Positions 10,023-55,533 of a DNA stretch of 64,000 nt are shown here, piece by piece. The DNA lies in IMG/VR virus record IMGVR_UViG_3300029319_000020, positions 14,437 to 78,436 of that record. The stretch is one strand, 5' to 3'. Position 1 is the stretch's first letter. Every line of letters begins with the position of its first letter. Source of the stretch: a virus. Its lineage: Duplodnaviria; Caudoviricetes. A model generated the notes under the pieces. The model ran no database searches and had not been told where the DNA came from. It saw only the letters and a program-made list of their open reading frames with translations. Position numbers and translations under genes: made by a program.

Positions 10023-10031
10023 ACTATTTAT
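10023..10031 (+). promoter_or_regulatory. Putative late-promoter motif ACTATTTAT
   Basis: Upstream of 10049 and the tape measure gene. Confidence 0.6.
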
Positions 10032-10048
10032 TTCACGAGGACTACGCT

Positions 10049-10429
10049 ATGGTTATTGATCTAACAAAGAAAAAACTATTAACCGAATCTTGGTTAAAAA
10101 TGTTTGGAGAATGGAACAAAGAGTTTCTTAAGTATGTTTATGGCAAAGATGTTAAAATGCAAGCACAACTTGGTGCTCACAACATACTTGGTAAACTAAT
10201 GGAAGAGGAAGATGATGGACAAAAATTAAAGTTTGTTATTCGTGGAGAACAACAAGATGTTGAAGCTTATGCAAAAGCTATATTTGCTGAAAAAGAATAT
10301 TTGGATCATTTTATTCGATACGGAAAAGATCATCCCCAATCACACAAATCAAAAGAAAAGTTAGATCATGCGGTAGATCACTTTGAACAAACAACTGGCA
10401 TTACTTGGCCATTTAAAGACGAGGCATAA
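10049..10429 (+). CDS. Hypothetical late protein
   Basis: GAGG RBS; N-terminal DLTKKKLLTE resembles the shared tag. Confidence 0.65.
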   Translation: MVIDLTKKKLLTESWLKMFGEWNKEFLKYVYGKDVKMQAQLGAHNILGKLMEEEDDGQKLKFVIRGEQQDVEAYAKAIFAEKEYLDHFIRYGKDHPQSHKSKEKLDHAVDHFEQTTGITWPFKDEA

Positions 10430-10433
10430 ATGA

Positions 10434-13187
10434 ATGGCAGACGGAAAGATATCAGTTGAAGAACTAGTCAAGCTTGTAGAAGAGAACAGTGACAACAAAA
10501 AGCTAAAAGACGCTATGAAAAAACTTGGTGTTATGAAAGGTGCTAAGTTGGATCTTGGAATCGATACAGGTGATCTTGAAAAAATGAGACAATCAACTGA
10601 ATATTTGCGACTTCAGGCTGATTATTTAGCACAGATTGGAGACAGAGAGGCTCTTCGTGAACAAGTTGCTGAGAATTTAAAAAATCTACAAGAAGAATAC
10701 GACAAACTCGCTCTTGTAGATGAAACTAGTCCTGTTCTTGAAGAGCTTAAAGCTTTGCAAGAAGAAGCTATAGAACAAGCAAAAGATCTTGGTTTTGCTA
10801 TTGACGAGACTGGTAAAAAAATAATGGAATTATCTCCTGCTGCAAAACAAGCTGCAAAAGAAGTTACACCTGCTTTTCAAAGGTTGGCAAGAAATATGGG
10901 TATGGCTTCAAACAAACAAGAAACAATGACAGCTAGTATGATCAGAGGATTTACTATGCTAAGATCAAAAGACGGTTTAAAAGGAGTTTTTGAATCGTTT
11001 ACTTCTGTATTTGGTGCTATAAGCATAGCAGAATCTATAGTCCTTAAGTTTGTTGAGTCAACCATAGCTATGGTTAAGCAGTTTGATAAAGCAAGAACCA
11101 GTTTTGCTGCTGCTACAGGAGCTGCTGATAAATATACCGGTGCTCTTTTGCAAGCCCAACAGCAAGGAAATATGCTTGGAGTAACTTTTGACAACGCGGG
11201 TAACGCTATAAAAGGAATGTTTGAAAACTTTGTTGGTTTTGTTGATATGTCAGAATCAGCCCAAGCAGCTTTAGTACAAGATGCTGCTCTTTTTGAAAGA
11301 ATCGGTGTTAACGCTCAAACATCAGGAAAGATGCTTACAACTTTCACAAGAAACTTGGATATGTCAGCATCAGGTGCTATGCACATGACCAAAGCTTTAT
11401 CTCAAATGGGAGATGAAATAGGTGTTTCTGCACAAAAAATGATGTCTGACTTTGAAACAGCATTTAAATCTTTAGCAGTATACGGAGATCAGTCCATAGA
11501 GGTCTTTCAAGGGCTTGCTGCGGCCGCTAAAGCTGCTGGTGTAGAGGTTGCTACCCTAACATCAATAGCGGGCAAATTTGATACATTTGCGGGCGCTGCT
11601 GAGTCTGTTGGAAAACTAAATGCTTTACTTGGATCTCAAATATCTTCAACAGAAATGTTAATGATGACAGAGGATCAAAGAATTGAAACTCTTATACAAC
11701 AAGTCCAACTAAGTGGAACTAATTTTAAAGATATGAACAAGTTCCAACAAATGGCTATAGCAAACGCTGCTGGTATTCAAGACATGGCTGAGGCTCAAAG
11801 AATTTTTGGTATGTCTTTTAACGAATACGGAAAGTACAAAGACAGAATGCAAGCTCAAAGTAGCGTTCAAGAAAATTATGCTAAAGCTATAGAAGCTACT
11901 TTAGGTTTTCAAGAAAAGTTTTCTATTTTTATGAGAGAGATGGCTGTTTTTGTAGAGCCTTTATCAGAAGCATTTGGTATGCTTTTAGATGGATTTTTAG
12001 CTTTTGCTAAACTCGGTGATGGTGTTGTTCTGGCGACACTTGGAATAGTTTCAGTTTTAACTTTAGCTTATTTTGCTGTGTCAGCTCTTACTGGTGGTTA
12101 TAAAACAATGATGGCAGTTAAAGAAGTAGCACAAGTTTTACAAAAGGAAGAAATCCTTCAAAAACAACTAGCAAATCAACAAGATATTGTTAAAAACACA
12201 CAACTTATAGCAAACAATTCGCAAAAAGCCATACAAAACGGTTTAGACGCAACAAACAATGCACAAAAAACCGTAGAAAATGGACTTACTGCTACAGGTA
12301 ATGCACAAAAAGAAATAGAAATTGGCGTAAGAACAGGAACAAACAGAATCAAACAACAAGAAATAGTAACAAATCAAGGTCTTGCAGGAACACAAACAGA
12401 AGTTGGAGTAACTTCTCGTTTTGCAGCCAAAGGTTTGGTGCAAATGGGAGCCGCTGTGGCACTTATTGGTGCTGGTATTGCGGCGGCTGCCTTTGGTCTT
12501 TCTTACTTTGTTGAAGCTTTTAATGGCTTAAGCGTGGCACAACTAGTAGCAGTGACAGTGGCTTTAGCAGGTTTTGCAGCAACAGTGTTTGGTATAGTAG
12601 GGATCATGGCTATTTTAGTCGCAACAGGTGTAGCAGAAGCAGCCGCACTAGGATTGATAGGAATAGGAGCTGGTATTGCATTAATAGGCCTAGGTGTTGG
12701 TTTAGCAGGAGCTGGTATTGGCTATATGGCTAAAGGCATTGCTGAGTTAGCTGATAAAGGAGCAATAGCTATTGGTGTTTTGGCTGGATTGGCTGCTGCA
12801 ATGGCAGTACTTGCAGCTAGTACTTTATTGTCTGGTTTTGGTTTTATAGGTGGAGGTAGTTTGCTACAAAGCTTAAAAGATGATTTAGAAGAAATAGGTA
12901 CTCTATTAAAGGGAGATGATATACTACAAGACGGTTTAGAAAACATGGCTCTTGTTGTAACAGGAAGATCAGCTAAAGTAACCACAGAAGGTGCAACAGA
13001 GGCAATAACTCAATTAAAAACAGCTTTCTCTGGGCTTATGGAACAAAAAGTTACAATATCACTAGATATTAAAGACAACGCCTTAGCTGATATGGTTGAA
13101 AACGTAGTTATAAATGGTATGGATTCAACCAAAAATGGTGCAATTTACAAAGCAACTGTTAAAGCAGTTGGTGGTGTAGGAGGATAA
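10434..13187 (+). CDS. Tail tape measure protein
   Basis: 917 aa, Ala/Gly-rich helical sequence with hydrophobic C-terminal repeats; lies between the chaperone pair and the baseplate genes. Confidence 0.85.
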   Translation: MADGKISVEELVKLVEENSDNKKLKDAMKKLGVMKGAKLDLGIDTGDLEKMRQSTEYLRLQADYLAQIGDREALREQVAENLKNLQEEYDKLALVDETSPVLEELKALQEEAIEQAKDLGFAIDETGKKIMELSPAAKQAAKEVTPAFQRLARNMGMASNKQETMTASMIRGFTMLRSKDGLKGVFESFTSVFGAISIAESIVLKFVESTIAMVKQFDKARTSFAAATGAADKYTGALLQAQQQGNMLGVTFDNAGNAIKGMFENFVGFVDMSESAQAALVQDAALFERIGVNAQTSGKMLTTFTRNLDMSASGAMHMTKALSQMGDEIGVSAQKMMSDFETAFKSLAVYGDQSIEVFQGLAAAAKAAGVEVATLTSIAGKFDTFAGAAESVGKLNALLGSQISSTEMLMMTEDQRIETLIQQVQLSGTNFKDMNKFQQMAIANAAGIQDMAEAQRIFGMSFNEYGKYKDRMQAQSSVQENYAKAIEATLGFQEKFSIFMREMAVFVEPLSEAFGMLLDGFLAFAKLGDGVVLATLGIVSVLTLAYFAVSALTGGYKTMMAVKEVAQVLQKEEILQKQLANQQDIVKNTQLIANNSQKAIQNGLDATNNAQKTVENGLTATGNAQKEIEIGVRTGTNRIKQQEIVTNQGLAGTQTEVGVTSRFAAKGLVQMGAAVALIGAGIAAAAFGLSYFVEAFNGLSVAQLVAVTVALAGFAATVFGIVGIMAILVATGVAEAAALGLIGIGAGIALIGLGVGLAGAGIGYMAKGIAELADKGAIAIGVLAGLAAAMAVLAASTLLSGFGFIGGGSLLQSLKDDLEEIGTLLKGDDILQDGLENMALVVTGRSAKVTTEGATEAITQLKTAFSGLMEQKVTISLDIKDNALADMVENVVINGMDSTKNGAIYKATVKAVGGVGG

Positions 13188-13190
13188 TAA

Positions 13191-14048
13191 ATGGCTTTTC
13201 CAAGTGTTAATATATCAAGTACCAGTGACTTATCAACAACAATAACTAATATACAAACAGGTCCTTTGCAGTTCAAAAGCATGATTACAGGACACAAAGT
13301 ACAATTCAAAGCATTTATAGAGTCTTTATCCAACTCTTTTAAATCAACATGGAACACAGAAAACGTTTACGGAAGGATGGATCCGGTAGCAACGTTTCAG
13401 AATACCCAAAGAACTATAGCTATCTCTTGGGTTATTCCTGCTGCTAATATATCAGAAGCTCAGCATAACTTAAACGCTATTGCATCCTTAAGTTCTATGT
13501 TATATCCTGGTTACAGTTCTAATCCTGTTACTGTTGATAATAACACCTTCACAACAGCTAATTCTATTTCAAGATCTCCTTTGATAAAAATGAAGTTTGC
13601 TAACTTAATAAACGCAGCAGGTGAATCTGGTGAAGGATCAGATGGTCTATTGGGGTACGTTGATGGTTTTGATCATCAAATAGAGGTTAGTATGGGATTT
13701 TTTATTAATAACAAAAAGATGTATCCAAAAGTCATAAAATTAAGTTGCAACTTTACTGTTCTTCACCAACATGATCTTGGGTTTGATAACGACAACGATT
13801 GGATTTCTGGTAATGATAGTAGCTGGATTTATGATAATGATCAAAAACTAGAAGGACCAACACCTGAAGTTGCTGGAGACACACCAGATTCTCAAGATCA
13901 AGATACAACAAACGCTGCTAACCAAAAAAATCAAGAAAAAATACAAGAAGCAGAGAGAAAACTTGACGAATGTATTGCGCAAAATGGAAGTACATCTGAA
14001 AAATGCATAGACTTATTCCTCGAACTTGAGGCCTTAAAAAGTGAGTAA
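13191..14048 (+). CDS. Baseplate/tail tube initiator-like protein
   Basis: FKAFIESLSNSF...W....YGRMDP...F..T.R pattern; follows the tape measure gene. Confidence 0.6.
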   Translation: MAFPSVNISSTSDLSTTITNIQTGPLQFKSMITGHKVQFKAFIESLSNSFKSTWNTENVYGRMDPVATFQNTQRTIAISWVIPAANISEAQHNLNAIASLSSMLYPGYSSNPVTVDNNTFTTANSISRSPLIKMKFANLINAAGESGEGSDGLLGYVDGFDHQIEVSMGFFINNKKMYPKVIKLSCNFTVLHQHDLGFDNDNDWISGNDSSWIYDNDQKLEGPTPEVAGDTPDSQDQDTTNAANQKNQEKIQEAERKLDECIAQNGSTSEKCIDLFLELEALKSE

Positions 14049-14053
14049 CAACA

Positions 14054-14386
14054 ATGAGTAGATATAAAAGAAGAAAAATAGTTTTTAACGATGTATACAA
14101 AGAAGAAGAGATCTTTGATAAGAGAGGTGTGGAAAAAATAGACCAGTTTACAACTCCAAAGTTTAAGAACCCTCCAGAAAAGTTGGTTGATAGTATTGAT
14201 TATTTTCTGTACAACTTCAAACAAGGGGATCGTTTTTTTAAATTGGCACAAAGGTTTTTTAATGATCCAAACTTGTGGTACTTAATAGCTTTACTTAACA
14301 GAAAACCAACGGAGGCACACGTAAAGCCGGGCGAAAAATTAAAAATTCCAACAAACATCGCCCAAGCAATTGAGGTACTAGGATGA
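14054..14386 (+). CDS. LysM-like baseplate wedge protein (gp53/gpX-like)
   Basis: Y.FKQGDRFFKLAQRFFNDPNLWYLIALLN...G..LKIP. Confidence 0.75.
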   Translation: MSRYKRRKIVFNDVYKEEEIFDKRGVEKIDQFTTPKFKNPPEKLVDSIDYFLYNFKQGDRFFKLAQRFFNDPNLWYLIALLNRKPTEAHVKPGEKLKIPTNIAQAIEVLG

Positions 14387-17300
14387 GCGAAGAATACTAT
14401 AAAGAATTAGTTGCACATAATAATACAAAAAATAAGTCATCTAGCAGTAAATTAATTTTCGAGAACGATTCACAAGCTGTCTATTTAGAACTTGATCGAG
14501 GTCACACATTCTCGACTTATGATACAAAGTTTTACGTTCTTGATGGAAATGATGGTATACCTGGTGGTAATCAAGATGGTATAGATGTACCAATTGCTCC
14601 TCAATTGAGAAGAATTTTAACTTCAAGACAAGTATTTGCAGCAAGAGGTTTCAAAACATTTAATGCTTTACCACCTCTTGTGCAGTGGATAGTTATAACT
14701 TCAACTTCTTTTAAAGGTGACTTAGACGGAAGTTTAGGGGCTAAAATAGTTGAACTATACAATTCTGTTAGATTTGCTACTGGAATCGATGGAGAAAGAA
14801 TAAATAATGCTGAAAAAGATATTGTTGTTTATAGAATAAAAAGATTGTTCAACATGATGAACAATCAATTTAAACTAGGTACAACTGAAGAAGTACCTTT
14901 AAGTGATGGAGCATTAGAAATCTTTGCTTTATATGACAACATACTGATTGCTTGTGGAGAAGAAGATTCTGGTAAAGCAAATGATTCTTTTAATTCTACA
15001 AAAGAAAACAGACAAAGAATAATACAAAATTCAGTACAATCCAAGGGAAATAATTTCTTACTTAAAAGATTTGGTTCAGCACTTGCTGATACTTTTAGTT
15101 TGGGCTCATTTAGAATAGCTATAAATAAAAATATAAGAGACTATATTGATTGGGGCCTTGCTTTGACTGATGTAGGCCTTGATAATGGCTCTTTTTTAGC
15201 TGATAATATTCTTTTACCGGAAACAGATGGAGACATGGTATATTATATAGATCTTGATGGTGACGAACCAGAGATTTTAGAAGTTGAAAAGAGTAAAGTA
15301 GACGCTGCTTCTGATGAACTTAAAGAAGTTTTAAAAGTTGACAAAGGGCAGAAAAAAGATCCTCAAGGTTTTGGTGGTAGATTTTTAAAATCAACTGATT
15401 TTTACCCAGTTAAATGGCAAGATATTAAAGATGCTGGAGACATATACAACAACGCACTAAGATTTAATGAATTTAAAACTGGTAAGAGTGTTCTATATGA
15501 TATAAATCATAGATACACTGAACCGGCACTTTTTAATCTTGAAAGAATAAATTCAGAAGAGGGCGAAATGCTGAAGTTTGCCAATGAAAATTTACCAAAC
15601 GTAACAATTTACGATAAGCCAGGAAACACACTTCCTTCAGCAGCGACAAGATCATTGGGCGGGGTATATGACCCAACAAAAAGCAAACCAAATATGTTTT
15701 GGGATTTTAACTTTTTTCAATTCAATGATTTTAGTCCTAAAAGTGAAGACTTGGTTGTAGGACATTATTTAAGATTTATGCAAGCAGTAAAAGTTGATAT
15801 TGAAAAAGATAAGGATCTTGACAGTACTTTAGGTTATTATTTTTATTGGGAAGCTCAAGACGCTGCTTTGACTCTTTTACCTTTCTTAGCTAAAGCACGT
15901 CAAGAAATGATTATTTCTAATATCTTGAAACAGTTAAAAGATAAAACTGAAGATGAAATAACAAACATGGACTCTGAACAAGCTCTAGAACAGGCTGAGG
16001 CAGATGCGCAAAAAAACTTAAACGATCTTCCTACTTCTGAAGATGAAGATAAAAAACTATCTCCTGAGGATATAGAAAAAAGACAAAAACTTTATAAGCA
16101 ATGTGCTTTACTTTTAAATGCTCACACTTTAAAAAATGAATATAATGCAATATTAATAGATAGAAAAGACAACGATCCTGTTCATAATAAAAATTTTTTT
16201 AATGGAAGATTTTGGATGGTTGAGGACAAGCCAAACCATAATACAGTACTAAACAAATTAGTAACTCCAACAGGCGAAGCAGCAAAACCTTTTATGGAAA
16301 TCACACCAGACATAATAGCGGCTCTTCAACCTAGATTACGACTACACAAAATTTACAAAACAAAAAACAATAAAATACAAACTCATGAAATTCCTTTTGA
16401 ATCATTTTATCCAAAATCAAGATCCGAGGGTTTATCAAATGGTGCGACTTTTGATAAAGGAGCAGGATATGGCATAAAAGAATTTTCTTTTTCTTTTGAT
16501 GGAGAAACACCAGCCACAGCTCAAAAGTTTATAAAAGCAAAACTGTCTCTTTATTTTCAAACTTTTAATGATTTTATAAAAGAAAGAACTTTAGAACTTC
16601 AAAACGAAAAATATACTTTTCGTTATTTAGATTTATTTGTTAATACTAAATTTTGTCCCAGATCAGGTTTAAACTCCTTTTCTCCTCTTTATTATGATCC
16701 TTCGTTTTATAGGCTTAGAGTTGATGTTGGCTGGGAACCAAGATTTGATAAACAGTTTGCTGAATTATTATCAAAGAGGTATGGAGGTACTGTTGATATT
16801 GCAAAGTTTGCAGATGCTCTTAATAGTACAAATAAAACTTTTTATTTAAACCTATTAGATCACTCTATCAATATAAATGAAGATGGAACAGTAACAATAG
16901 ATGCTGAATATATAGCTTATATGCAAGGAATATTACAATCTAATTCTTTTAACGCCTTAACAACAAAGTATGCCAAACAACAACAAAGAACATATGCTAG
17001 AAAATATGAAGAACTGTTAGGTAGCGAATCATGCACTCCTCGGGAATTAGATGAATTAGCTGCTACTATAAATTCTATAAATGATAAAATTACGCAATCT
17101 TTACACCAAGGAATTATAAAAAGATTAATATTGAACAAAGCTATATATAACGTAAAAATAGACGAGTCAGCTATTAATGATTTTAGAAATACAAGTTTTT
17201 TTAGCAGTATTCCAAAATTAAAAAAATCAAGCACTGTGGCTCAGAACAAAAGTCAAGCAGTTGCTAATACAAAAGATGCAGAAGAGTTAACCAACGTTAT

Positions 17301-30567: not shown

Positions 30568-30753
30568 ATGAAACAAAAACTAGAACAACTAATTGAAGGG
30601 CTACAAGCCATTCTTGAGGATATAGAAAAAGTGGATGAAAAGTCCTATGGTTACAAAGCAGCTGCTGTCCGTGCCAGAAAGACTCTTCATGAAGCAAGAG
30701 GTCAGTTCCAAGAACTTCGTAAAGAAATTCAAGCAAAGAAAAACGAAAAGTAA
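30568..30753 (+). CDS. Histone H1-like Hc1-family nucleoid protein
   Basis: KAAAVRARK.L.E.R...QELRK motif. Confidence 0.65.
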   Translation: MKQKLEQLIEGLQAILEDIEKVDEKSYGYKAAAVRARKTLHEARGQFQELRKEIQAKKNEK

Positions 30754-30772: not shown

Positions 30773-30807
30773 AAAAACCCTGTGACTAATTATCATAGGG
30801 TTTTTTT
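30773..30807 (+). terminator. Terminator hairpin whose loop is the late motif CTAATTA
   Basis: AAAAACCCTGTGA-CTAATTA-TCATAGGGTTTTT. Confidence 0.75.
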
Positions 30808-30822: not shown

Positions 30823-31365
30823 ATGAAGATCACAAACCAAGAATTAAAACAAATTATAAAAGAAGAATTAGATAAAGTTCTTGAAGAATATTATTCTTTA
30901 CCACAATCATATGATAAAGTAAGTAATCAAGCTTTTTATGATAGAAGAGACAATGTTAGAGATGCAAAAGGTCCTCAAACTTATAAAGGACTAGAAGGTG
31001 GATCTATAGGCAGTATTGAACAAGATCCAAACATTCCACCTGAGCATAAAGAAAAATTAATCAGATTATTTAAACAAGGCCCAGAAGGTAGAAGACAAGC
31101 TTTAGAATTAATGGACGCGATGGGCTATGGTGTTGAACCAATTCTTGACACCGAAGAAGGACCTTTTGAAAAAATAAGAAATCCTTTTTCTGGAGATGAT
31201 CATCCAACCACACACCATCCCGAAATGATGGGTTATGGATATAATAAGTATAAAAAAGCACCACACTATATGAGAGGTGGTGGTACTTTTACTTACGATG
31301 AGAATGACCCTAATCAATATGGAAACATAGATAAACTAATGAAACATTATGAGAAGAAAAAGTGA
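30823..31365 (+). CDS. Hypothetical protein with MKIT..LKQIIKEE tag
   Basis: AGGAG RBS; late motif at 30785. Confidence 0.7.
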   Translation: MKITNQELKQIIKEELDKVLEEYYSLPQSYDKVSNQAFYDRRDNVRDAKGPQTYKGLEGGSIGSIEQDPNIPPEHKEKLIRLFKQGPEGRRQALELMDAMGYGVEPILDTEEGPFEKIRNPFSGDDHPTTHHPEMMGYGYNKYKKAPHYMRGGGTFTYDENDPNQYGNIDKLMKHYEKKK

Positions 31366-31953: not shown

Positions 31954-32241
31954 ATGTTTACACACGTTTACAATAGACACGTTCTTGTTGAGCTTGTCGA
32001 TGAAGAAGAAGAAAAGCAAGAGTCGCTTATTGCCTTACCACAAGATTACAAGAGACAAGAGTCACCATACTTAGTGGTTAAAGTTCTCGATAAAGCAGAG
32101 GACTGTAAAACCTTTGTAGAAGTATGTGATAAAGTTGTTATCGAACGTAGAATGCTAATTGAAATAGAAATTAAAGGTGAAAAGAACTATTTAGTTTTAG
32201 AAAATTACATCTACGGGAGATTAGAAGATGAAACTGACTAA
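31954..32241 (+). CDS. groES: GroES-like co-chaperonin
   Basis: 95 aa: N.HVLVE, mobile-loop-like ESLIALP, V..V.....V.V.DKV, C-terminal LV.E..I.G. Confidence 0.6.
   Translation: MFTHVYNRHVLVELVDEEEEKQESLIALPQDYKRQESPYLVVKVLDKAEDCKTFVEVCDKVVIERRMLIEIEIKGEKNYLVLENYIYGRLEDETD
32186..32194 (+). promoter_or_regulatory. Putative late motif ACTATTTAG (intragenic)
   Basis: About 35 bp upstream of tagged gene 32228. Confidence 0.45.
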
Positions 32242-32899
32242 AGAACTATTAAAAGAAATGATTCTTAAAGAAATGAAGAATCTTACACCTGCTCAAATAG
32301 AGCAAGAAGTTAGAAAACACATAATGCAAATAGGAGATCCAGATGGAGTTAAGAATATAGCTTTTGTAACAGCTCATGAACCACCTGAAGGTGGTAAAAA
32401 CTTTGAATGGGATAACGATGAGATGCAATTTCATTTAAAATCAATGTTAAAAAGAAGAGGTTATAAAGAGTTCTATCCAATAATTGGAAATTATGGTGGA
32501 CAACTTGAAGGATCTTTAATGGTAGTTGAAAGAGATCAATCACAGTCTGAATTTCTTGATCAAATGGTTTCAATTGGAAAACAATTTAATCAAGATGCTG
32601 TAATTGTTGGTACGAAACAAGAATCAATGCAAACAGACCCTAGTCAATCTGGGCCGGCTTACCACATGGATTTTGAAATGATAAACTTACACCCAACAAA
32701 AACAGGTGTTCCAAATATGGATTTTAGACAACAAAGTACATATGATGAGAGAGACCAAGTTCAGTATGGACCAGCTGTGCAAAGCAGAGCAACTGATTTT
32801 TCTCAAGCAGGAAACTTTAAATTTGTTATTCCTTTCTTTTCATCAGCACCAGCAGATCAAAACAAATTTAGAGCAAATGTTAGAAACGTTGGAGAATAA
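32228..32899 (+). CDS. Tagged protein with a DUF3293-like domain
   Basis: MKLTKELLKEMILKE tag; FVTAHEP..L..RG...G.YG..E.SL....G..FNQDAV. Confidence 0.55.
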   Translation: MKLTKELLKEMILKEMKNLTPAQIEQEVRKHIMQIGDPDGVKNIAFVTAHEPPEGGKNFEWDNDEMQFHLKSMLKRRGYKEFYPIIGNYGGQLEGSLMVVERDQSQSEFLDQMVSIGKQFNQDAVIVGTKQESMQTDPSQSGPAYHMDFEMINLHPTKTGVPNMDFRQQSTYDERDQVQYGPAVQSRATDFSQAGNFKFVIPFFSSAPADQNKFRANVRNVGE

Positions 32900-33608: not shown

Positions 33609-33881
33609 ATGATTCAAAGCCAACCAGTAACTAAACCTCTTTTTTCTATCGGTGATCTTGTAAAGGTAAGAGGTTTTGGTATTGTTCTGTCACCTGAAGA
33701 AGTTCAAATTGGTATAATTAGTAATGGACCATATTCATTTAAATCATTAGAATCATATCATGAATTAGTTTATTTTGAATGGTGGTGTTATGATATAATC
33801 ATCGGCAGCTCACTAATTACAATGATGCCAGAAAACTTTTTATTAAGGGTAAGTGTAGATGAAAGTGAAAAAGATATTTGA
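33609..33881 (+). CDS. SH3/KOW-like small protein
   Basis: FSIGDLVKV N-terminus like the 61-64 kb family; ACTAATTAT at 33597. Confidence 0.55.
   Translation: MIQSQPVTKPLFSIGDLVKVRGFGIVLSPEEVQIGIISNGPYSFKSLESYHELVYFEWWCYDIIIGSSLITMMPENFLLRVSVDESEKDI
33812..33820 (+). promoter_or_regulatory. Putative late motif ACTAATTAC (intragenic)
   Basis: About 40 bp upstream of gene 33859. Confidence 0.45.
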
Positions 33882-35214
33882 ATCTTATGAAAGATTTTTA
33901 GAAGAGTTAAAAGAACTACCAGGTGATGAAGTAGACTATGTCAGGATTGGTATAGCAAAAGAAATAGATGCAACACTTCAAAGACCTTCAAACGATCAAG
34001 AATTAAATAAGCTACTCAGAGCTAAAACTCCTGGCATAACAAAAAGGAACGCCAACTTATTACTGTATCTTTATAGAGGTGTTGATGAAAAAGGTAACTT
34101 ACTTAAGAATGAAAATGTTAAAGCTGTTATCGATGAGCTTGATAAAAGGGCTGAAAGGTTTCTTGATTCTTTTGAAACTCAAGTTCATTTTTTAGTTTTT
34201 TTGAATGATGCTCCAATGCTTATGAATGAGTATATGCCACGCATGAGAGAAGTTAGTAAAACAGATAGTCATGAATCTAAGTTCATGTTAAAAACTGCAC
34301 CTGGTCATTTTGACGCATTTCAGTTTGCCAAGAAGAAACCGTTTGCCATCTTTTCAGACACAACAGCTAACTCAGGTATGAAAGATTTTATGCACAAGCA
34401 AACACCAGAGCTTCATAATATAAACCCTCAACATCATTATTTGTTTAAGCTAGAGTTCTTGATAGAAATTGCATACGATATAGTAAAAGACAATATAGAT
34501 TTTTTAGTTCCTGATAGAAATAAAATTGATATTGATATAAAGCCTCTAGTACCTCAAAGGTTTATTGCAAATTATTTGAAAGGAATAACTGTAACTACAG
34601 ATGATTACAGAAAAGAGTTACGTAAAAAACCACATCCAACTTTTGATCCAATGGTAAAAGCTCAAAGATACGCAATGAATAAATTGTTTAGATACTATTA
34701 TTACGGTGATTACCTAAGAGATAGCGAAGAAAAACAAATGAAACTAATCGATGACTACATGCCACAAATATTAGACTTAGATACAGAAAATGTACAAGCT
34801 GGTATGGTACCAAACAAAAGCTTATTACTGTCTTTGGTGTGGGAAAACTTTCCTAAAGAAAGTAAAGAAAAATACAAATTACCTTTTCTAAAGATTTTAT
34901 ATACAGTAAAAAACACAAAATGGATGGATTATTCTCTTAGAGATATTATAAATAAACCTGGTGTTTTAGATAGAGAGAGGGGCGACACCGAATTTCTTCC
35001 TTTAGGAAGCCCAGGAGAAACTGAGGATCATAGAAAAGAATATGCAGAAAATGAATTAAACGTTATGATACGTATGCTAAATAATAAAGAAAACATATCT
35101 GAACGTTGGGATGAATTCAAAATTCTTTGGTCTAAACTAGCATCTGACACAAAAGAAGAATTGACTCCAAAAATAAATGAACTCATAAAAATAATTGAAG
35201 GTGATAATGAGTGA
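33859..35214 (+). CDS. Hypothetical helical protein, likely late/virion
   Basis: 451-aa ORF; N-terminal MKVKKIFESYERFLEE. Confidence 0.65.
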   Translation: MKVKKIFESYERFLEELKELPGDEVDYVRIGIAKEIDATLQRPSNDQELNKLLRAKTPGITKRNANLLLYLYRGVDEKGNLLKNENVKAVIDELDKRAERFLDSFETQVHFLVFLNDAPMLMNEYMPRMREVSKTDSHESKFMLKTAPGHFDAFQFAKKKPFAIFSDTTANSGMKDFMHKQTPELHNINPQHHYLFKLEFLIEIAYDIVKDNIDFLVPDRNKIDIDIKPLVPQRFIANYLKGITVTTDDYRKELRKKPHPTFDPMVKAQRYAMNKLFRYYYYGDYLRDSEEKQMKLIDDYMPQILDLDTENVQAGMVPNKSLLLSLVWENFPKESKEKYKLPFLKILYTVKNTKWMDYSLRDIINKPGVLDRERGDTEFLPLGSPGETEDHRKEYAENELNVMIRMLNNKENISERWDEFKILWSKLASDTKEELTPKINELIKIIEGDNE

Positions 35215-39922: not shown

Positions 39923-40409
39923 TTTACTGCTATCTCTTGCATTTGCAGGTACTACTGTTTATGCTCCAATGGAAACACAACTGGAGACAACTGTGGTTCA
40001 TTATTTTATTGATAAAGACTTTCATGCTAGAAAAAAAGATATGCTTGTTATTAACTGGGCTGACTGTGAGAATATGGGGCACCGAGAGTGTGCTATGATG
40101 AAAGAGTTTTGGTATTTAGATACAGTTGTGTTTGAAGGTGAGGAATCATACCAAATCAATATTTTTCTTTATGACGAAAAATCAAGAATTGTATCTCAGT
40201 CGATTATACACAAAAGATATAAGATTGAAAAGATCCCTCAAAAAACCACAGTTAAAGGAACTAAGGTTGAGCGAGGTACAATCGCACCATTCAAGACAGA
40301 AATAGAAAAACCTCCAATTTTAATAAAAAAGAAGCCTGAAATTACAGCAAGAGAAATAGAACAAGCTGTTATTAAACTACTTATTAACATTAAGGAGTAT
40401 GAAGAATGA
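39915..40409 (+). CDS. Secreted protein
   Basis: Short signal peptide MFSLLLSLAFA. Confidence 0.6.
   Translation: MFSLLLSLAFAGTTVYAPMETQLETTVVHYFIDKDFHARKKDMLVINWADCENMGHRECAMMKEFWYLDTVVFEGEESYQINIFLYDEKSRIVSQSIIHKRYKIEKIPQKTTVKGTKVERGTIAPFKTEIEKPPILIKKKPEITAREIEQAVIKLLINIKEYEE
40376..40384 (+). promoter_or_regulatory. Putative late motif ACTACTTAT (intragenic)
   Basis: About 20 bp upstream of tagged gene 40406. Confidence 0.45.
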
Positions 40410-40912
40410 AACTAACAAAACAAAAACTAGAACAATTAATAGCGGAAGAATATGTAAGAAGGGTTGCCGATGATGGAAAGCCAACTAACTATCCTGAATA
40501 CGCAGATAAGCTTACTGCTTTGGCAAAATCAGACCCTTTACAAGCTAGAGAACTAGCTGATGCTTTGGGTGAGCCTTTAGATATTGAATTTGACAAAATC
40601 AGCAGCCATGTGCCAATTCCACGTTCTGATAGTGAAAAGAATGACTTCGATCTTCATATTGATTTTCTTATGGAAGATCACGTTTCATCGTTAGCAGAAG
40701 AACCAGACATGCAAGAAGCGTATGAATTCGCACAAAGAAAAGGGCTTGATCCTCAAGAAACATACAATTCATTAATGAGAAATTATAAAAGAATAATGTT
40801 ACGACATGTAAACCAACCAAAAACCGAACATGATCGAAATAAAGAATTAGAAGATCTTTATGGTCTTGATCTCCGCCCAGATTGGATGAAAAAAAGCAAA
40901 CCAAAAAGATAA
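40406..40912 (+). CDS. Tagged hypothetical protein (paralog of 31362)
   Basis: MKLTKQKLEQLIAEEYVRR..KPTNYPEYADKL. Confidence 0.7.
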   Translation: MKLTKQKLEQLIAEEYVRRVADDGKPTNYPEYADKLTALAKSDPLQARELADALGEPLDIEFDKISSHVPIPRSDSEKNDFDLHIDFLMEDHVSSLAEEPDMQEAYEFAQRKGLDPQETYNSLMRNYKRIMLRHVNQPKTEHDRNKELEDLYGLDLRPDWMKKSKPKR

Positions 40913-49544: not shown

Positions 49545-49567
49545 AATAAATTATTTATTTTTTTAAT

Positions 49568-49604
49568 CATGTCCCTTGACAAATGTCTTGGGACATGTTA
49601 TATT
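49568..49604 (+). promoter_or_regulatory. sigma70 promoter embedded in an inverted repeat
   Basis: CATGTCCC-TT-GAC-aaat-GTC-TT-GGGACATG; TTGACA-N17-TATATT. Confidence 0.8.
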
Positions 49605-49633
49605 ATAAATACATTTCAACAAAGGAGGATTAT

Positions 49634-49939
49634 ATGTGGAATGATGTAAAAGATAAAATCGTTATGGTTGCCGAATGGGATGATGACGATGTAGATAAGG
49701 ATGAAGCTGGTCACATGATTGACTTTATTAAATCTATCAAAGAACTAAATGATGCAATGCAACCTTATAAAGATCAATTAAAAGATCTTAAAGCTAATTA
49801 TAAAGAACAAGAATGGCTTGATGCAAAACAACAAAAAATGGCAATGAAGATCTATCGTATGATTGACGATGAGGTGGATTTAGCTGAATTTGTTGATCTA
49901 TATCAAACAGTTAACAAAATAATCAAAAAGGAGGAGTAA
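49634..49939 (+). CDS. Hypothetical protein (possible small helical dsDNA-binding protein)
   Basis: GGAGG RBS; helical, with a loose resemblance to GapR/DsbA-like proteins. Confidence 0.5.
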   Translation: MWNDVKDKIVMVAEWDDDDVDKDEAGHMIDFIKSIKELNDAMQPYKDQLKDLKANYKEQEWLDAKQQKMAMKIYRMIDDEVDLAEFVDLYQTVNKIIKKEE

Positions 49940-50364
49940 TGAAAATAAAAGTGATGAAGCTAGATGCTGGTGCAAAAATACCTAAATATGCAAAACCTGG
50001 TGATGCTGGTATGGATCTTTATGCTGTAACTGAATCATTTGATGATCATGGCAACTATGTTTATGGAACAGGTTTAGCTATGGAGATACCTGAAGGTTAC
50101 GTGGGTTTAATATTCCCACGTTCTTCTATCTCAAAAACAGCACATTCTCTTAGAAATGCTGTTGGGGTCATTGACTCTGGCTATCGTGGAGAACTAATAT
50201 TTAAATTTGATATTAACACTTTAAACTCACCAGTGTACAAAGTTGGAGACAGGATAGGTCAAATAATAATCCTACCTTATCCTCAAATAGAATTTGAAGA
50301 AGCTTGGGAACTTTCAAAAACTGAAAGAGGAACAGGTGGATATGGTTCAACTGGTACTAATTAA
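49939..50364 (+). CDS. dut: Trimeric dUTPase
   Basis: AGMDL, PRSS, GVIDSGYRG, RIGQ, RGTGGYGSTG. Confidence 0.97.
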   Translation: MKIKVMKLDAGAKIPKYAKPGDAGMDLYAVTESFDDHGNYVYGTGLAMEIPEGYVGLIFPRSSISKTAHSLRNAVGVIDSGYRGELIFKFDINTLNSPVYKVGDRIGQIIILPYPQIEFEEAWELSKTERGTGGYGSTGTN

Positions 50365-50367
50365 TAT

Positions 50368-50691
50368 ATGTCTGAACATAAAAAGAAGAAAATTCAATTT
50401 ACTGATACCGACATAAGACATGCGCAACTTAAAATTAGGCTTGAGAGAGAAAATATCACTCAAGCCGACTTTTTTAGAGCATGTGTTTCTGGTATGTCTG
50501 ATGGTGATCACGATCTTATGAAATTTATTCGTCGATACAAAGAAGAAAAAAACATTGGTCGAAAGCGTGACATTAAAGTTACTCAACAAGAGGATGAACA
50601 AGCAAACGATTTAATGGCAAAATTTGGAATAAAAGATGATGAATTGGAAAGTATTTTTGATTTAATAGCAGAAGAACACCCAGAATTGTGA
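50368..50691 (+). CDS. Hypothetical protein
   Basis: Intact 107-aa ORF. Confidence 0.6.
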   Translation: MSEHKKKKIQFTDTDIRHAQLKIRLERENITQADFFRACVSGMSDGDHDLMKFIRRYKEEKNIGRKRDIKVTQQEDEQANDLMAKFGIKDDELESIFDLIAEEHPEL

Positions 50692-50708
50692 TTTTTATGT
50701 TTTTATGA

Positions 50709-50717
50709 TCTATTTAT
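50709..50717 (+). promoter_or_regulatory. Putative late motif TCTATTTAT
   Basis: Intergenic, upstream of 50753. Confidence 0.5.
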
Positions 50718-50752
50718 AGAGAAAATAATTTAACAAAAGGAGATTTTAAGTT

Positions 50753-51364
50753 ATGCGCAAAAAATTATTATCTGAAGCCCAAGTTCGTCGTTTCCAGAGC
50801 TTGGCTAGTATTAAACCACTAAACGAAATGGATTCTTCATACAAAAAACACGATGATAAAGATAAAATGGAGGAAATGGCTTACAAAAAAGATGATCTAG
50901 AAGAAAATCTTTACGAAGAGGAAGCACTTTACGAAGAAGAAGAGATGGGTGATGAAGACATGGGAGATGAAGACATGGATGAAGCTGATGTCGAGATGGA
51001 CGAAGAACTAGTTCAAAAGTTCATGGATGCTGTTGACACAATGAAAGAAGTTGCTGATGTTCTTGGTGGAGTAGCCGGTGGAGACATGGATCTAGGTGAT
51101 GATATGGACATGGGTGACGACAAACCTGCTGATGATATGGACATGGGTGGTGATGAAGAACCAATGGAACTTGATGCTGGTGGTGAAGAACCTGCTGGTG
51201 AAGAAGACGAAGAAGAAATGCTTCAAGAAGCTCTTCGTGGGATCTCTTATGTTCCATCTAAAAAAGAGGTTGTTAAGGTTGTTGCTAAAAGGGTTGCAAA
51301 GCGTTTGCAAGAAGCAAAACGTGCTCAAGCTAAATTAAACAAAGCTCTTGGAAAAAAACATTAA
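50753..51364 (+). CDS. Highly acidic prohead core/scaffold-like protein
   Basis: D/E/M-rich low-complexity repeats (DEDMG), many L.E sites, basic C-terminal helix. Confidence 0.5.
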   Translation: MRKKLLSEAQVRRFQSLASIKPLNEMDSSYKKHDDKDKMEEMAYKKDDLEENLYEEEALYEEEEMGDEDMGDEDMDEADVEMDEELVQKFMDAVDTMKEVADVLGGVAGGDMDLGDDMDMGDDKPADDMDMGGDEEPMELDAGGEEPAGEEDEEEMLQEALRGISYVPSKKEVVKVVAKRVAKRLQEAKRAQAKLNKALGKKH

Positions 51365-51366
51365 TT

Positions 51367-51690
51367 ATGAAATTAACCAACAAACAATTACAGCAAATAA
51401 TTAAAGAAGAGTTGGCAAGTGTCATGAGAGAAATGGAAGCTCCATCAGGACAAAGTAGAATGGATTATGTTGGAGACATGAAAGCGTTAGAACAAGATCT
51501 ACAAGCCGCTATCTACGACAATAACCTCTCACAAGATGTAGCGGATACTATCCTAGGTGCATTTAGCTTTCGAGAAGTGACACGACAAACAATAGCGAAC
51601 CAAATCAAAATAGCTATGATAGACGATCCAGAAAATGCCGAGATTTATCAAGGTATGATCATAGACAATGACCTTCCAGAACCACAATAA
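51367..51690 (+). CDS. Tagged hypothetical protein
   Basis: MKLTNKQLQQIIKEEL N-terminus. Confidence 0.7.
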   Translation: MKLTNKQLQQIIKEELASVMREMEAPSGQSRMDYVGDMKALEQDLQAAIYDNNLSQDVADTILGAFSFREVTRQTIANQIKIAMIDDPENAEIYQGMIIDNDLPEPQ

Positions 51691-51701
51691 AAATTATTTA
51701 C

Positions 51702-51729
51702 TTGACAAATTTTACAAATGTGTTATACT
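51702..51729 (+). promoter_or_regulatory. sigma70-like promoter
   Basis: TTGACA-N16-TATACT. Confidence 0.75.
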
Positions 51730-51793
51730 ATAAGGACAAGCTAATCACTTGTCCTTTATTTTTAAAGAATTCATTTACAACAAAGGAGGCAAA

Positions 51794-52486
51794 ATGAAAT
51801 TCACAAAGAAAAAAACCAAAACTATTATAGATGAGGGTAACAAAGAAAAAGAAGGCGAAGATCTTCCAACCCAAGAAGACGTAGAAGCAGCAAAAGATAT
51901 GCTCGCAGCTATGATGGGTCCTCCACCTGAAGAGGAAATGCCTTCAACATTTATGATGTACGGTGATGTAAATGAGGAACGTGCTGCTGATATCGTTTCT
52001 GCCCTGTTGTTACTTGGAGACAAGAAAAGGGTTAAAAAGGCACAAGACAAGTTGCCTGAAGGTGAAGAGCTTGATGATATCACTTTTTATCTGTCAACTT
52101 ATGGTGGATCTGCTGATGACATGATGGCAATTTATGACATGATGCGTTTAACAAAAGAAAATAGAGATATTGAAACCATTGGTATGGGCAAGATTATGTC
52201 TGCTGGAACTTTGATTCTTGCTGCTGGGACAAGAGGTAAGCGAAAGATTATGAAGAACTGTCGTGTTATGATTCATGCTGTTTCTGCTGGATCAATGGGC
52301 ACTATACACAACCTTGTAAATGAGATGGAAGAAATTCAAAACATTCAAGATGCTTATATAGCTGCTTTATGTGCTGAAACACTACTTACTAAGAGACAGT
52401 TGAAAAAGATGTTGGATCAAAAAGTAAATGTGTATCTTACCGCCGAGGAAGCTGTCGAATATGGATTAGCAGACGAGGTTATTTAA
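51794..52486 (+). CDS. clpP: ClpP-family protease
   Basis: STYGG, MSAG (Ser), MIH (His), YLTAEEAVEYGLAD. Confidence 0.9.
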   Translation: MKFTKKKTKTIIDEGNKEKEGEDLPTQEDVEAAKDMLAAMMGPPPEEEMPSTFMMYGDVNEERAADIVSALLLLGDKKRVKKAQDKLPEGEELDDITFYLSTYGGSADDMMAIYDMMRLTKENRDIETIGMGKIMSAGTLILAAGTRGKRKIMKNCRVMIHAVSAGSMGTIHNLVNEMEEIQNIQDAYIAALCAETLLTKRQLKKMLDQKVNVYLTAEEAVEYGLADEVI

Positions 52487-53371
52487 ATGGACGCAGAATT
52501 TTACAACGAATCATCATCGTTGAAATTAGGATGGACACCCGACTGGTTCGGGTGTTCTGAATTTGATGAGGAACTTACCGAAGCGATACGCAAGTATCAA
52601 AAATCAATAGGACTTAAAGCCGATGGACTTTGTGGACCTGGAACCTATCGAAGGATCTGGACCGACAGAGAGTCGGCTCTTCCTTTTTTACAGGATGAGG
52701 TGCCTGAACATAAGAACACCAGCATTATATATAATAATGATTACTATGATATTGATTGGCCGAAGGTAGTTCTTCCTTTTATGAAAGGTGGTATGAAACT
52801 AACAAAAGGCTACAAGAAAATTGTGGAGAAAAGAACACCAACCAATTTCGTATGTCATTGGGATGTATGTCTGAGTTCAAAGTCATGTTTTAAAGTACTT
52901 CAGAACAGAGGATTGTCAGTTCATTTTCTCATAGATAACGATGGAACCATTTATCAGATTCTTGATATGAACCATATAGCTTACCATGCAGGCGGATCAA
53001 AGTGGAACGCTAACTCCATTGGTGTTGAGATTGCCAACGCTTATTACCCTAAACACCAGAAATGGTATATTAAGAACGGTTTTGGAGAGAGACCTATATG
53101 GAAAGAGAAGAAGGTTCACGGAAGATATCTAGAACCATTCTTAGGCTTCTATGACGTACAACTACAAGCTCTCAAAGCTTTAATGAAAGCTGTGAATAAA
53201 GCAACAGATATTCCCCTAGAAACACCAAACTCCTCAACAACATCAGCTCCAGCGGTTAGAGGAACTTATAAGGGTTTTATCTCGCACTTCCATTTGAAAA
53301 AAAACAAGATAGATTGTGCCGGATTAGACCTTAAACAACTAATTATTGACATAAATGAAGGAGATTATTAA
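52487..53371 (+). CDS. Endolysin: PG-binding domain plus N-acetylmuramoyl-L-alanine amidase
   Basis: AIRKYQ..GL.ADGLCGPGT; CHWD, SVHFLID, YHAG, SIGVEI, SHF. Confidence 0.88.
   Translation: MDAEFYNESSSLKLGWTPDWFGCSEFDEELTEAIRKYQKSIGLKADGLCGPGTYRRIWTDRESALPFLQDEVPEHKNTSIIYNNDYYDIDWPKVVLPFMKGGMKLTKGYKKIVEKRTPTNFVCHWDVCLSSKSCFKVLQNRGLSVHFLIDNDGTIYQILDMNHIAYHAGGSKWNANSIGVEIANAYYPKHQKWYIKNGFGERPIWKEKKVHGRYLEPFLGFYDVQLQALKALMKAVNKATDIPLETPNSSTTSAPAVRGTYKGFISHFHLKKNKIDCAGLDLKQLIIDINEGDY
53338..53346 (+). promoter_or_regulatory. Putative late motif ACTAATTAT (intragenic)
   Basis: About 25 bp upstream of tagged gene 53371. Confidence 0.45.
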
Positions 53372-55533
53372 TGAAACTAACAAATAACAAACTTGAGCAA
53401 TTGATTATGGAGGTTTTGTCTGAGGCAACAGTAAAGCCTGAAAATATTAACAATATTACTATGTACAAAAAGTCAAATGGAGAACCGATCTTTTTCGAAA
53501 AAAATAGCAAAGGTCAATGGGAGGATGACGGTGATCCTCCAAAAGTTGTAGATATGGCCAAAGAATTTAATAGTGGTAAATATGATACAGACCCGGGAAA
53601 TATATCTTTTACAGAAAGTTCAAACAGCGAAGAGCTTAATGGCGATTCGAACCCTAATTTAATGAGTATTTTTCAATCTGGACCACCACCAGTAAACAAT
53701 CCACCACCAGTAAACAATCCACCACCAGCAAATAAACCACCAGGATCTGTGCCCAATTGGTCAACTTATAAAAAATATGATAACTACACTGATGGTGGTA
53801 ATAAAGGGATAAAATATTCTGTAATTGACTGGCTAAATGCTCTGAAGGATAACAATCAACTAAATTTACACTGGATTGTTTATCAATCCATGTTAGACAC
53901 GGCTAACGTTGACAAAAGAACAATAGACTGGTTATACGGAACATTAAAAATTAATAACATAAAAGATCAATGGAAACAGGTTCTATTAGATGCTGGGGTA
54001 ACAAATTATCCGTCGGACCAAGCTGCTCGAAAACAAACCGCTACACAAATACTAGATTATCTAAAAACAAATAAAGGAACTAATTTAGAAGCTGGAGAAT
54101 TTGCAACAAAACAAGGAATTGATCCATATGAAGATCTATTAAAAATAGTTAAAGGTATTGATAGTTCTTTAGAAAAAGAACTCATAACATTACTTGGTAA
54201 TAATTTAAATTCACTAAAAAAGATGTCTGAATCAGTATTAAAAGAGAATCAAAACATTCTTGAACCAGAGGACTTTAGAGTATATTATAAAAAAGCTGTA
54301 GATACAAATGACAATACAGTAACCAAAGCAGACTCTGATAAAGTTGATTCCGCACTGAAAACGTTTTACATGAATGTAAAGAACTCAACAACTTTGGACT
54401 CAACAAAAAAATCTCAAATCTTAAATAAAATTTCGAAAGTTATAGAGTATGAAAAAACAGCCTCAGGAAAAGTAAGAGCGACAAAGGGTGTTACTTCTGG
54501 TTATCAACTCGGTTCCAGAGCGGCAACCGAAACAGGAAAAACAGATTTTCAAATTCTAAAAGCGTTCGAAAAAGCATTTCCCGGTCCAGAGTTTCGTGAT
54601 CGTTTAAGTCAATTCACCACTTATACAACAGAAATAAGCAATTTTTTACAAGACCCAACATCCGGAATTAGTGGAGATGCAAGACAGAAGTTTTCTAAAT
54701 TTATAACATTAGATCTAATGCAACAAATTCTTTATGATTTTGAAGCTTCAAGTGCTGGTTGGGTATTTGAGTCTTTTTTAGCTTTTATGGCATTTGGAAA
54801 TGCTATTGGTGCATCTTACGGAGCAGGAGATTTTACAATAGGTAATGATGTTCAAGGTAGTGCAAAGTTGCTACAAGGCAAGACCTCTTCCCAAAGTGTA
54901 GCAGATTGGCCAAAGGCAAGCGATATAAATAGCATAGGATCTGACAATATTATAAGATATGTTTTTGGTGTAAAGACTTCTTTTAAAGACGGCGAAATGG
55001 CACCCACAACACAAAAAGACAGAGCAGGAAGAGTGGATGTGTATATTTTTGACCTTGCGCATGTAGAAGTCAATGGAAAAGCAAAAGTATTACACAGAGC
55101 ACCTGAGTCTGGGACATGGGATGAAAATGATTTCTTTAAAGTAAAAACAGATGGCAACACCACAAGAGTATCTTTTAGTGTTAGTGGCTACAAGCCGATA
55201 GGTTCTATGAATTTATTATTCCTTCAAGAAAGAGAATTTGAAGATTATTCGGCATTAATAGTTAATAATATTAGCGAAGACCTAGAAAAGGCAATGCAAC
55301 AGATATCAAATATAAAAGCAAATTTGGATGATTATTTGCAAACAGACAATGCAGACGACAGAACCTATGCTTCATCAGAAGCAATGAGAAATTATGCTCT
55401 TCTCGGTACTTCACTAGAGGGAGATGGAACTAAGACTGGCGTGTTCAACGCTTTGGAAGAATCCAAATTACAAACCCTAGATCAACTCATTGCTGAAACA
55501 ATGAGAGAAATTAAAAGAAAAAGAAAAAAATAA
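53371..55533 (+). CDS. Large tagged protein, possible PD-(D/E)xK-like C-terminal region
   Basis: MKLTNNKLEQLIME tag; PPPVNN linker; GWVFESFLA..GDF..SAKLL. Confidence 0.55.
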   Translation: MKLTNNKLEQLIMEVLSEATVKPENINNITMYKKSNGEPIFFEKNSKGQWEDDGDPPKVVDMAKEFNSGKYDTDPGNISFTESSNSEELNGDSNPNLMSIFQSGPPPVNNPPPVNNPPPANKPPGSVPNWSTYKKYDNYTDGGNKGIKYSVIDWLNALKDNNQLNLHWIVYQSMLDTANVDKRTIDWLYGTLKINNIKDQWKQVLLDAGVTNYPSDQAARKQTATQILDYLKTNKGTNLEAGEFATKQGIDPYEDLLKIVKGIDSSLEKELITLLGNNLNSLKKMSESVLKENQNILEPEDFRVYYKKAVDTNDNTVTKADSDKVDSALKTFYMNVKNSTTLDSTKKSQILNKISKVIEYEKTASGKVRATKGVTSGYQLGSRAATETGKTDFQILKAFEKAFPGPEFRDRLSQFTTYTTEISNFLQDPTSGISGDARQKFSKFITLDLMQQILYDFEASSAGWVFESFLAFMAFGNAIGASYGAGDFTIGNDVQGSAKLLQGKTSSQSVADWPKASDINSIGSDNIIRYVFGVKTSFKDGEMAPTTQKDRAGRVDVYIFDLAHVEVNGKAKVLHRAPESGTWDENDFFKVKTDGNTTRVSFSVSGYKPIGSMNLLFLQEREFEDYSALIVNNISEDLEKAMQQISNIKANLDDYLQTDNADDRTYASSEAMRNYALLGTSLEGDGTKTGVFNALEESKLQTLDQLIAETMREIKRKRKK
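53683..53742 (+). repeat. 18-bp coding tandem repeat (PPPVNN x3)
   Basis: ccaccaccagtaaacaat twice plus a degenerate third copy. Confidence 0.9.

Follow-up and report, generated by a model that had tools for sequence, protein, structure and literature searches.

The stretch of DNA analysed here (64,000 nucleotides (nt), positions 14,437 to 78,436 of IMG/VR virus record IMGVR_UViG_3300029319_000020, Caudoviricetes; hereafter the window) comes from an uncultured marine T4-like phage and carries six genes whose products begin with a common 16-residue leader peptide, and it is this leader, probably a capsid-targeting propeptide comparable to that of phage T4, that is the subject of this work. All genes in the window lie on the + strand. 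A T4-type major capsid gene (Pfam Gp23, 3-1298) is cut by the start of the window, and downstream of it are found a neck gene, the tail sheath gene (5015-7783) and the tail tube gene (7827-8435). Later genes encode gp32, a DnaB-like helicase, a DNA polymerase, ThyX, UvdE, a dUTPase and an adenosine deaminase, and chaperones and proteases are represented by Cpn10, Hsp20, a ClpP-like protease and GroEL.

Across all six frames of the window, the pattern M-K-[IL]-T-[KN]-x-x-L-x-x-[ILM]-I-x-E-E has exactly six matches, every one of which is located at the start codon of an open reading frame (ORF) on the + strand. The same six stand out when 1100 candidate N-termini of the window are scored with a profile built from 43 leaders, with scores of 29.7-41.4 bits and a next-best N-terminus at 10.0 bits. 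These tagged genes, referred to below by their start positions, are as follows:

30823-31365, + strand: tagged gene, 180 residues; leader MKITNQELKQIIKEEL at 30823-30870; 40.8 bits
31362-31841, + strand: tagged gene with a GTG start, 159 residues; leader (M)KLTKKKLEKLITEEY; 32.1 bits; paralog of 40406
32228-32899, + strand: tagged gene, 223 residues; leader MKLTKELLKEMILKEM; residues 37-213 with a predicted phage S-adenosylmethionine (SAM) lyase fold (DUF3293-related)
40406-40912, + strand: tagged gene, 168 residues; leader MKLTKQKLEQLIAEEY; 34.3 bits
51367-51690, + strand: tagged gene, 107 residues, acidic (isoelectric point (pI) 4.2); leader MKLTNKQLQQIIKEEL; 41.4 bits
53371-55533, + strand: tagged gene, 720 residues; leader MKLTNNKLEQLIMEVLSE

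Pattern and profile scores agree on these six, which a first-pass annotation of the window had already named as the clear cases. That annotation had listed nine carriers, however, and three of the nine (10049, 33859 and 50753) lack the leader and are rejected on their profile scores: 3.2 bits for 33859, and below 3 bits for 50753 and 10049. The orthologs of the latter two have other N-termini. The family of orthologs to which 10049 belongs, located in the tail gene module, has a distinct conserved N-terminus, LL.ESW, and 50753 has a different N-terminus that is kept in its ortholog in G001, an IMG/VR phage (187 kb, rated complete) that is syntenic with the window from gp23 on:

50753-51364, + strand: very acidic 203-residue protein (D+E 31%, pI 4.3) without the leader; N-terminus KKLLSEAQVRRF, which holds L-S-E followed by A

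This protein is a candidate scaffold or core-like protease substrate, whose link to the tagged proteins we only infer. The 451-residue protein at 33859-35214 begins MKVKKIFESYERFLEE, which is not the 16-residue leader and resembles the shorter T4-like MK..K.FE type, and a G001 ORF (L116:286-996) begins MKKLLENFKSFLSE. These may represent a second leader class that coexists with the 16-residue leader.

Synonymous codon differences are present between the leader copies in the window, indicating that conservation and selection operate at the level of the peptide. Every copy, the six of the window and those of relatives alike, is located at the extreme N-terminus, from Met1, with a stop codon 0-30 codons upstream of the leader start codon. 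The earlier description of the tagged proteins as otherwise unrelated mostly stands, in that no similarity is found among the remaining pairs of the six, but it does not apply to the paralogs 31362 and 40406, which are 73% identical over residues 19-63 and show no relation beyond, nor fully to 30823 and 40406, which have a weak 46-residue segment in common (E 0.003). No Pfam or PHROG match was found for the 30823 protein, and a protein atlas search with 40406 returned no match.

The phage has no close match in the INPHARED phage collection (megablast, and tblastn with 53371). Among cultured phages, the closest gp23 proteins come from Flavobacterium phage immuto (~50% identity), Microcystis phage Mel-JY01 and Rhodothermus phage RM378; gp23 of LR756508.1, a 484-kb uncultured phage, is 53% identical, and IMG/VR contains many relatives with gp23 60-71% identical. 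In five contigs picked by gp23 similarity only, a leader-profile search finds the leader 5-11 times in each, with essentially all matches beginning at profile position 1. The five largest contigs picked by the leader pattern (190-289 kb) contain 26, 23, 6, 5 and 12 copies, and their tagged genes are often arranged in tandem arrays of up to ~17 genes. In LR756508.1, ~18 ORFs begin MKLTERKLRKIVKEEI, and phage immuto has a shorter leader variant on two proteins, immuto35A_190 (MKKSQLRQIIKE) and _198. Searches for the leader in cyanophage S-RIM2 and RM378 gave 0 copies, and no N-terminal leader was found in Mel-JY01. A strict DNA pattern, back-translated from the leader, has matches in more than 120 IMG/VR stretches, which is a lower bound. 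At positions that this pattern leaves free, the residues of the leader logo recur nevertheless (K5 in 82/112, K/R9 in 96/112 and K/R13 in 89/112 ORFs), indicating that the pattern matches are true copies.

The window and seven related contigs together yield 43 non-redundant tagged proteins, whose logo reads M K [IL] T K x x L K Q I I K E E L. I12 is present in 43/43, E14 in 42/43 and L8 in 40/43, and position 15 is freer. The information content collapses past position 16, save for a faint second [LM]-x-E at residues 20-22. Beyond residue 24 the bodies fall into 39 BLAST clusters among the 43 proteins. The tagged proteins are mostly acidic and mostly 65-300 residues long (full range 65-720), and no Pfam or PHROG family is common to their bodies, 41 of 42 being without any match. 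The leader is a lineage-wide feature of a wide clade and is carried on 39 or more unrelated bodies. Literature searches with leader-derived strings returned no relevant paper, and none was found that links a capsid-targeting sequence (CTS) to marine T4-like phages or that reports proteomics of immuto, the nearest isolate.

The residues that are most conserved in the leader correspond to those on which the T4 signal depends. The T4 protease gp21 cuts after Glu in L/I-x-E; targeting by the 10-residue T4 signal depends on residues 4 and 7, and its processing on residues 8 and 10 (PMC9026906). Asp at position 10 blocks the cut in T4. In T4, ipII and ipIII begin MKTYQEFIAE followed by A, and ipI begins MKTFKEF...ITE followed by A (read from NC_000866). 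When the two are aligned from the cut site, T4 Y4, F7, I8 and E10 coincide with leader L8, [IL]11, I12 and E14, the most conserved leader positions, so that the leader resembles a T4 signal lengthened by about one turn of helix. I12-x-E14 fits the L/I-x-E motif of the gp21 family. The leader is modelled, at low confidence, as a helix in two structure models (residues 5-17 and 5-16), with its hydrophobic residues on one face.

A protease of the required kind is encoded by relatives of the phage. Peptidase_S77 (the T4 gp21 family) is found in G001 (L116:1418-2026) and, above the Pfam cut-off, in 5/5 large leader-bearing contigs, one in each, and in G001 a 79-residue tagged ORF starts 5 nt past the Peptidase_S77 gene. 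The gp23 of G001 has L-R-E followed by A just before a conserved IVRRVF block, the position homologous to the T4 gp23 cut. Other features of this region of G001 are a variant leader, MNKNELKKILKPLIKECIKEVIFE, on the ORF after the tagged 79-residue gene (L116:2215-2688), a 445-residue acidic, gp22-like protein just upstream of gp23 (L116:10998-12335) with ~20 [LI]-x-E sites, and two ORFs, of 1100 and 936 residues, inserted in the head module between gp21 and gp22.

One tagged body, that of 32228, can be followed beyond the leader. It is retained with the leader in 27/27 close homologs, and a search for shorter, leaderless homologs returned only fragments. Its structure model, of mean predicted local distance difference test score (pLDDT) only 58, aligns with the T3 SAM lyase 7ock_L at Z 11.2 (root-mean-square deviation 3.2 Å, 137/152 residues) and with Svi3-3, 6zm9_A, at Z 8.0, against an unrelated background of Z ~6, and in a second, independent search the top Foldseek matches are the SAM lyases 6zm9, 6znb and 8bb1_E. 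In sequence comparisons the match to PF23780 (phage SAM lyase) reaches 21.8 bits, below the cut-off of 28, and the family profile has no match among PDB sequences; distant relatives of the body do pass the DUF3293 (PF11697) cut-off. The body is modelled as having the phage SAM-lyase fold of the DUF3293 superfamily.

Run against a library of 1.84 billion proteins, the 32228 family profile matches 368 representatives. Only 19 of the 149 best matches to the body carry the leader, and this scarcity among its relatives indicates that the leader was fused onto a pre-existing fold. The others of these 149 are DUF3293 proteins in which other short peptides precede the conserved body start E-[SA]-G-[FY]: 21 of the peptides are F/Y-rich and T4-CTS-like, such as MSSFKEFLNE (then SGF) and MKSFKQFVVE, and 30 are longer, many of L..LI.E type. 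One body type thus stands behind several leader classes, each ending in hydrophobic-x-Glu, a pattern to be expected of an exchangeable, cleavable address. No Peptidase_S77 was found on the 51-kb viral fragment, ~20% of a genome only, that encodes P0084, a DUF3293 relative with a T4-like N-terminus; this fragment has a weak Gp23-family match.

The tagged genes also appear to be associated with a promoter-like motif, and the coordinates given for the upstream motifs in the first-pass annotation are correct. The window contains 19 copies of ACTAWTTA on the + strand and one on the - strand, where 11.2 are expected on both together (shuffles), and the motif shows a likewise biased strand distribution in G001 (29 vs 2). 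CTA[ATC]TTA is located 29-41 nt upstream of 4/6 tagged genes, and the other two directly follow a gene with the motif:

30785-30792, + strand: ACTAATTA, promoter-like motif, 38 nt upstream of 30823
32186-32193, + strand: ACTATTTA, promoter-like motif, 42 nt upstream of 32228
40376-40383, + strand: ACTACTTA, motif variant, 30 nt upstream of 40406
50709-50716, + strand: TCTATTTA, motif variant upstream of 50753; would serve 51367 too
53338-53345, + strand: ACTAATTA, promoter-like motif, 33 nt upstream of 53371

The motif also precedes the neck, sheath and tube genes and is found before 8/55 other genes, giving an enrichment at tagged genes of p = 0.011 (Fisher). The proposed co-occurrence of tag and motif is upheld insofar as the motif is real and enriched, but its link to the tagged genes is modest. 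The tagged genes may form a transcription class of their own, probably a late one, as this modest association would allow. Twelve strong sigma70-like promoters, TTGACA-N17-TGTTATAAT, are also present in the window, and none of the 12 directly precedes a tagged gene. They are situated between 19626 and 63729 (e.g. 42535, 44358, 49034 and 55535), have the near-perfect form TTGACA-N17-TGTTATA(A/T)T with an extended -10, and precede replication genes, chaperone genes and a mini-gene array. In this array (61000-64000) the genes are small and their products start with M.VGDLV (SH3-like mini-genes). The sigma70-like promoters are of the proteobacterial/cyanobacterial type, not that of Bacteroidota, which bears on the host of the phage.

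The best explanation of the leader, and one that we consider likely to be correct, is that it acts as a capsid-targeting propeptide like those of the T4 internal proteins and represents an elongated form of the T4 CTS. During prohead assembly, the leader would dock its carrier proteins onto the scaffolding core. A prohead protease of the gp21 family (Peptidase_S77) would then remove it after Glu14, in I12-x-E14, with [LM]-x-E at residues 20-22 possibly serving as a back-up cut site in many copies, and the cargo would stay in the mature head until it is ejected into the host. We infer this course of docking, cleavage, retention and ejection as a whole. The cargo would comprise a fast-turnover, mostly small and mostly acidic set of proteins, together with the SAM-lyase-fold protein 32228 and the conserved 53371. 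The earlier interpretation is supported in part. Its core, a T4-like tag that is cut after Glu, is the explanation favoured here too, and consistent with it are the I-x-E motif, the S77 protease in relatives, the register with T4, the 39 or more bodies, and the occurrence of the 32228 body elsewhere with other leaders.

Several points weigh against this explanation. The leader and the tagged proteins are known from genes alone in every phage that carries the leader, and the leader and the 10-residue T4 signal are matched by pattern, a likeness to which no statistical value can be assigned. Acidic proteins form the majority of the predicted mature products, whereas T4 IPII and IPIII are basic. 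No gp21-like protease is found in the window, which begins inside gp23, so that gp21 would lie upstream. To our knowledge, every T4-like phage has Peptidase_S77, whether or not it carries the leader, and its co-occurrence with the leader is consequently a necessary condition and not a diagnostic one; a ClpP-like protease also co-occurs with the leader, in 5/5 contigs tested. In G001, furthermore, only some of the tagged genes are near the promoter motif.

The alternative that fares best, although we regard it as unlikely, is that the leader takes proteins into the prohead as core or assembly components, which are degraded and expelled before DNA packaging, like T4 gp67, gp68 and gp22, so that there would be no ejected cargo. 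Small, acidic bodies predominate, as among core proteins, a second h-x-E site (h, hydrophobic) is present in many leaders, and the tagged 79-residue ORF of G001 directly follows the S77 gene and is itself followed by the variant-tagged ORF. Core proteins are conserved, however, whereas the tagged bodies are replaced entirely from one phage to another at 60-70% gp23 identity, and both the tandem arrays of up to ~17 tagged genes and a body with an enzyme fold fit cargo better than scaffold.

There is little probability, in our estimation, that the leader acts outside the capsid, either as a docking or oligomerisation helix for another complex, perhaps with the phage's own GroEL, Cpn10, ClpP-like protease or Hsp20, or as an N-terminal degron that times degradation. 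A ClpP-like gene is indeed present in 5/5 leader-bearing contigs, two tagged genes flank it in the window, and the ClpP-like protein itself begins with a degenerate leader, MKFTKKKTKTIIDE. But Mel-JY01 has ClpP without the leader, immuto has the short leader variant without ClpP, and the ClpP ortholog of G001 is devoid of the degenerate leader; a degron, for its part, leaves the invariant I12 and E14 unexplained. The notion that the tagged proteins form a single expanded paralog family, in which the N-terminal helix is merely the slowest-evolving part and has no addressing role, seems equally hard to sustain. The paralogy of 31362 and 40406, the weak segment in 30823 and 40406, and the tandem arrays, which suggest duplication, would fit it, but the body lengths of 65-720 residues and the 39 clusters obtained from 43 proteins do not, and the 32228 body belongs to a widespread superfamily of which most members lack the leader. 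A translation-initiation or other mRNA-level signal, to which the A-rich first codons (ATG AAA NTN ACN AAR) might point, is highly improbable given the synonymous codon variation and the placement of the strongest conservation at residues 8, 11, 12, 14 and 16, that is 20-48 nt into the ORF.

The capsid-targeting explanation places the leader beside systems that are already established. The CTS of T4 is found on the internal proteins IPI, IPII and IPIII (Mullaney and Black 1996; reviewed in PMC9026906 and PMC3012670). Like the leader, it is short, N-terminal and common to proteins that are not otherwise related. The gp21 cut motif, hydrophobic-I-x-E, closes both, and the hydrophobic positions 3-4 residues upstream are critical in T4 and most conserved in the leader. 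In each case the genes lie outside the head module, either dispersed or in clusters, and an S77 protease is encoded by relatives of the leader-bearing phage. The leader differs in its length of 16 residues (MKxT + KxxLxxhIxE) versus 10, in the residue past the cut, usually Glu instead of the Ala of T4, in the number of tagged genes per genome (5-26 versus 3 in T4) and in its mostly acidic cargo. The phages that carry it are also distant from T4, with gp23 like that of immuto, Mel-JY01 and the 484-kb uncultured phage.

The polymorphic internal-protein loci of T-even phages encode diverse injected anti-restriction proteins that have only the CTS in common, for example IPI* versus GmrSD (PMC3012670). 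There, as here, a hypervariable body follows a constant leader, and one cargo here is modelled with the fold of SAM lyases, a family of anti-restriction enzymes. The arrays of leader-bearing genes are far larger, and, in contrast to both the T4 and the T-even systems, what is known of them comes from the genes alone. In phiKZ, 201phi2-1 and SPN3US, propeptides of head and ejection proteins are cut after Glu by diverged gp21 homologs (PMC9026906, PMC5694885). In these giant phages, too, many head-internal proteins are cut after Glu at short motifs, often with redundant sites, but the propeptides are long, have no common short leader and use the motif [S/A/G]-x-E, not I-x-E. The kind of system is already known; what is new is the particular form of the leader, how widely marine phages carry it, and a cargo with the SAM-lyase fold.

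A more far-reaching and tentative proposal, which we hold to be possible and rather doubtful, is that a marine T4-like clade, including phages of 240-480 kb, preloads up to ~26 proteins per genome and injects them with the DNA as a first strike against SAM-dependent and other defences, with a SAM-lyase-fold enzyme among them and the DUF3293/SAM-lyase-like body as a recurrent cargo with interchangeable leaders. The tagged SAM-lyase-fold protein suggests the hypothesis of an anti-restriction enzyme that is delivered as a protein and not expressed early. If the leader is a targeting signal, it would mark the packaged, and possibly injected, proteins of abundant uncultured ocean phages from sequence, among them hundreds of proteins to which no function is assigned and which would likely be enriched in counter-defence factors. 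The T4 CTS principle would then extend far past the T-even phages, with a signal that can lengthen and diverge yet keep its targeting and cleavage positions, and proteins could be loaded into marine phage capsids with the leader as a portable tag.

The individual tagged genes and their surroundings have further characteristics. The start of 31362 overlaps the stop codon of 30823 (operon), the start of 51367 is 3 nt past the stop of 50753, and 51367 has a second M-R-E at residues 20-22. In 53371, the C-terminal ~60% is conserved across the clade, in a family of 600-860 residues. Its homologs retain the leader in diverged forms, such as MSDKLTEQKIEEMIAELLSE and MSNKKVNSKMLKDLIVEVLQE, and the syntenic counterpart in G001 (gene 167911) begins MKQSDLDKLIEQVIAEK. 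An AlphaFold2 model of 53371 (pLDDT 60) gave no fold match. A role for this protein as the major capsid protein is rejected, gp23 being located at 3-1298. In the homologs, ..L-I-x-E.. (I707, E709) is invariant and lies 11 residues before the C-terminus (window 55459-55533). T4 Alt reportedly has a C-terminal processing site, and I707/E709 could be a site of that kind.

Two of the tagged genes belong to a block at 50753-57164, conserved in G001, which encodes the 203-residue acidic protein, the tagged 107-residue protein, the ClpP-like protease, an amidase, the tagged 720-residue protein and GroEL. The amidase is an N-acetylmuramoyl-L-alanine amidase with a peptidoglycan-binding domain. The ClpP-like protease (51749-52486, likely start 51794; Pfam CLP_protease, E 3e-32) is, at 10.0 bits, the best-scoring non-member, its degenerate leader keeping M1, K2, T4, K5, I11, I12 and E14. 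This resemblance, which is not present in the G001 ortholog, may be due to chance, or the protease may itself be addressed. It is rejected as the prohead protease, since the relatives have a separate S77 protease. The block as a whole looks like a second 'scaffold plus protease' module, distant from the head genes.

Adjoining the cluster of tagged genes that begins at 30823 is a gene for a histone-like DNA compactor of the Hc1 type. Its product, a basic protein of 61 residues (30568-30753), matches Pfam Hc1 (chlamydial histone H1-like) above the cut-off (E 1e-8); it is rejected as a leader carrier, its N-terminus being part of the Hc1 domain, and it is kept in G001.

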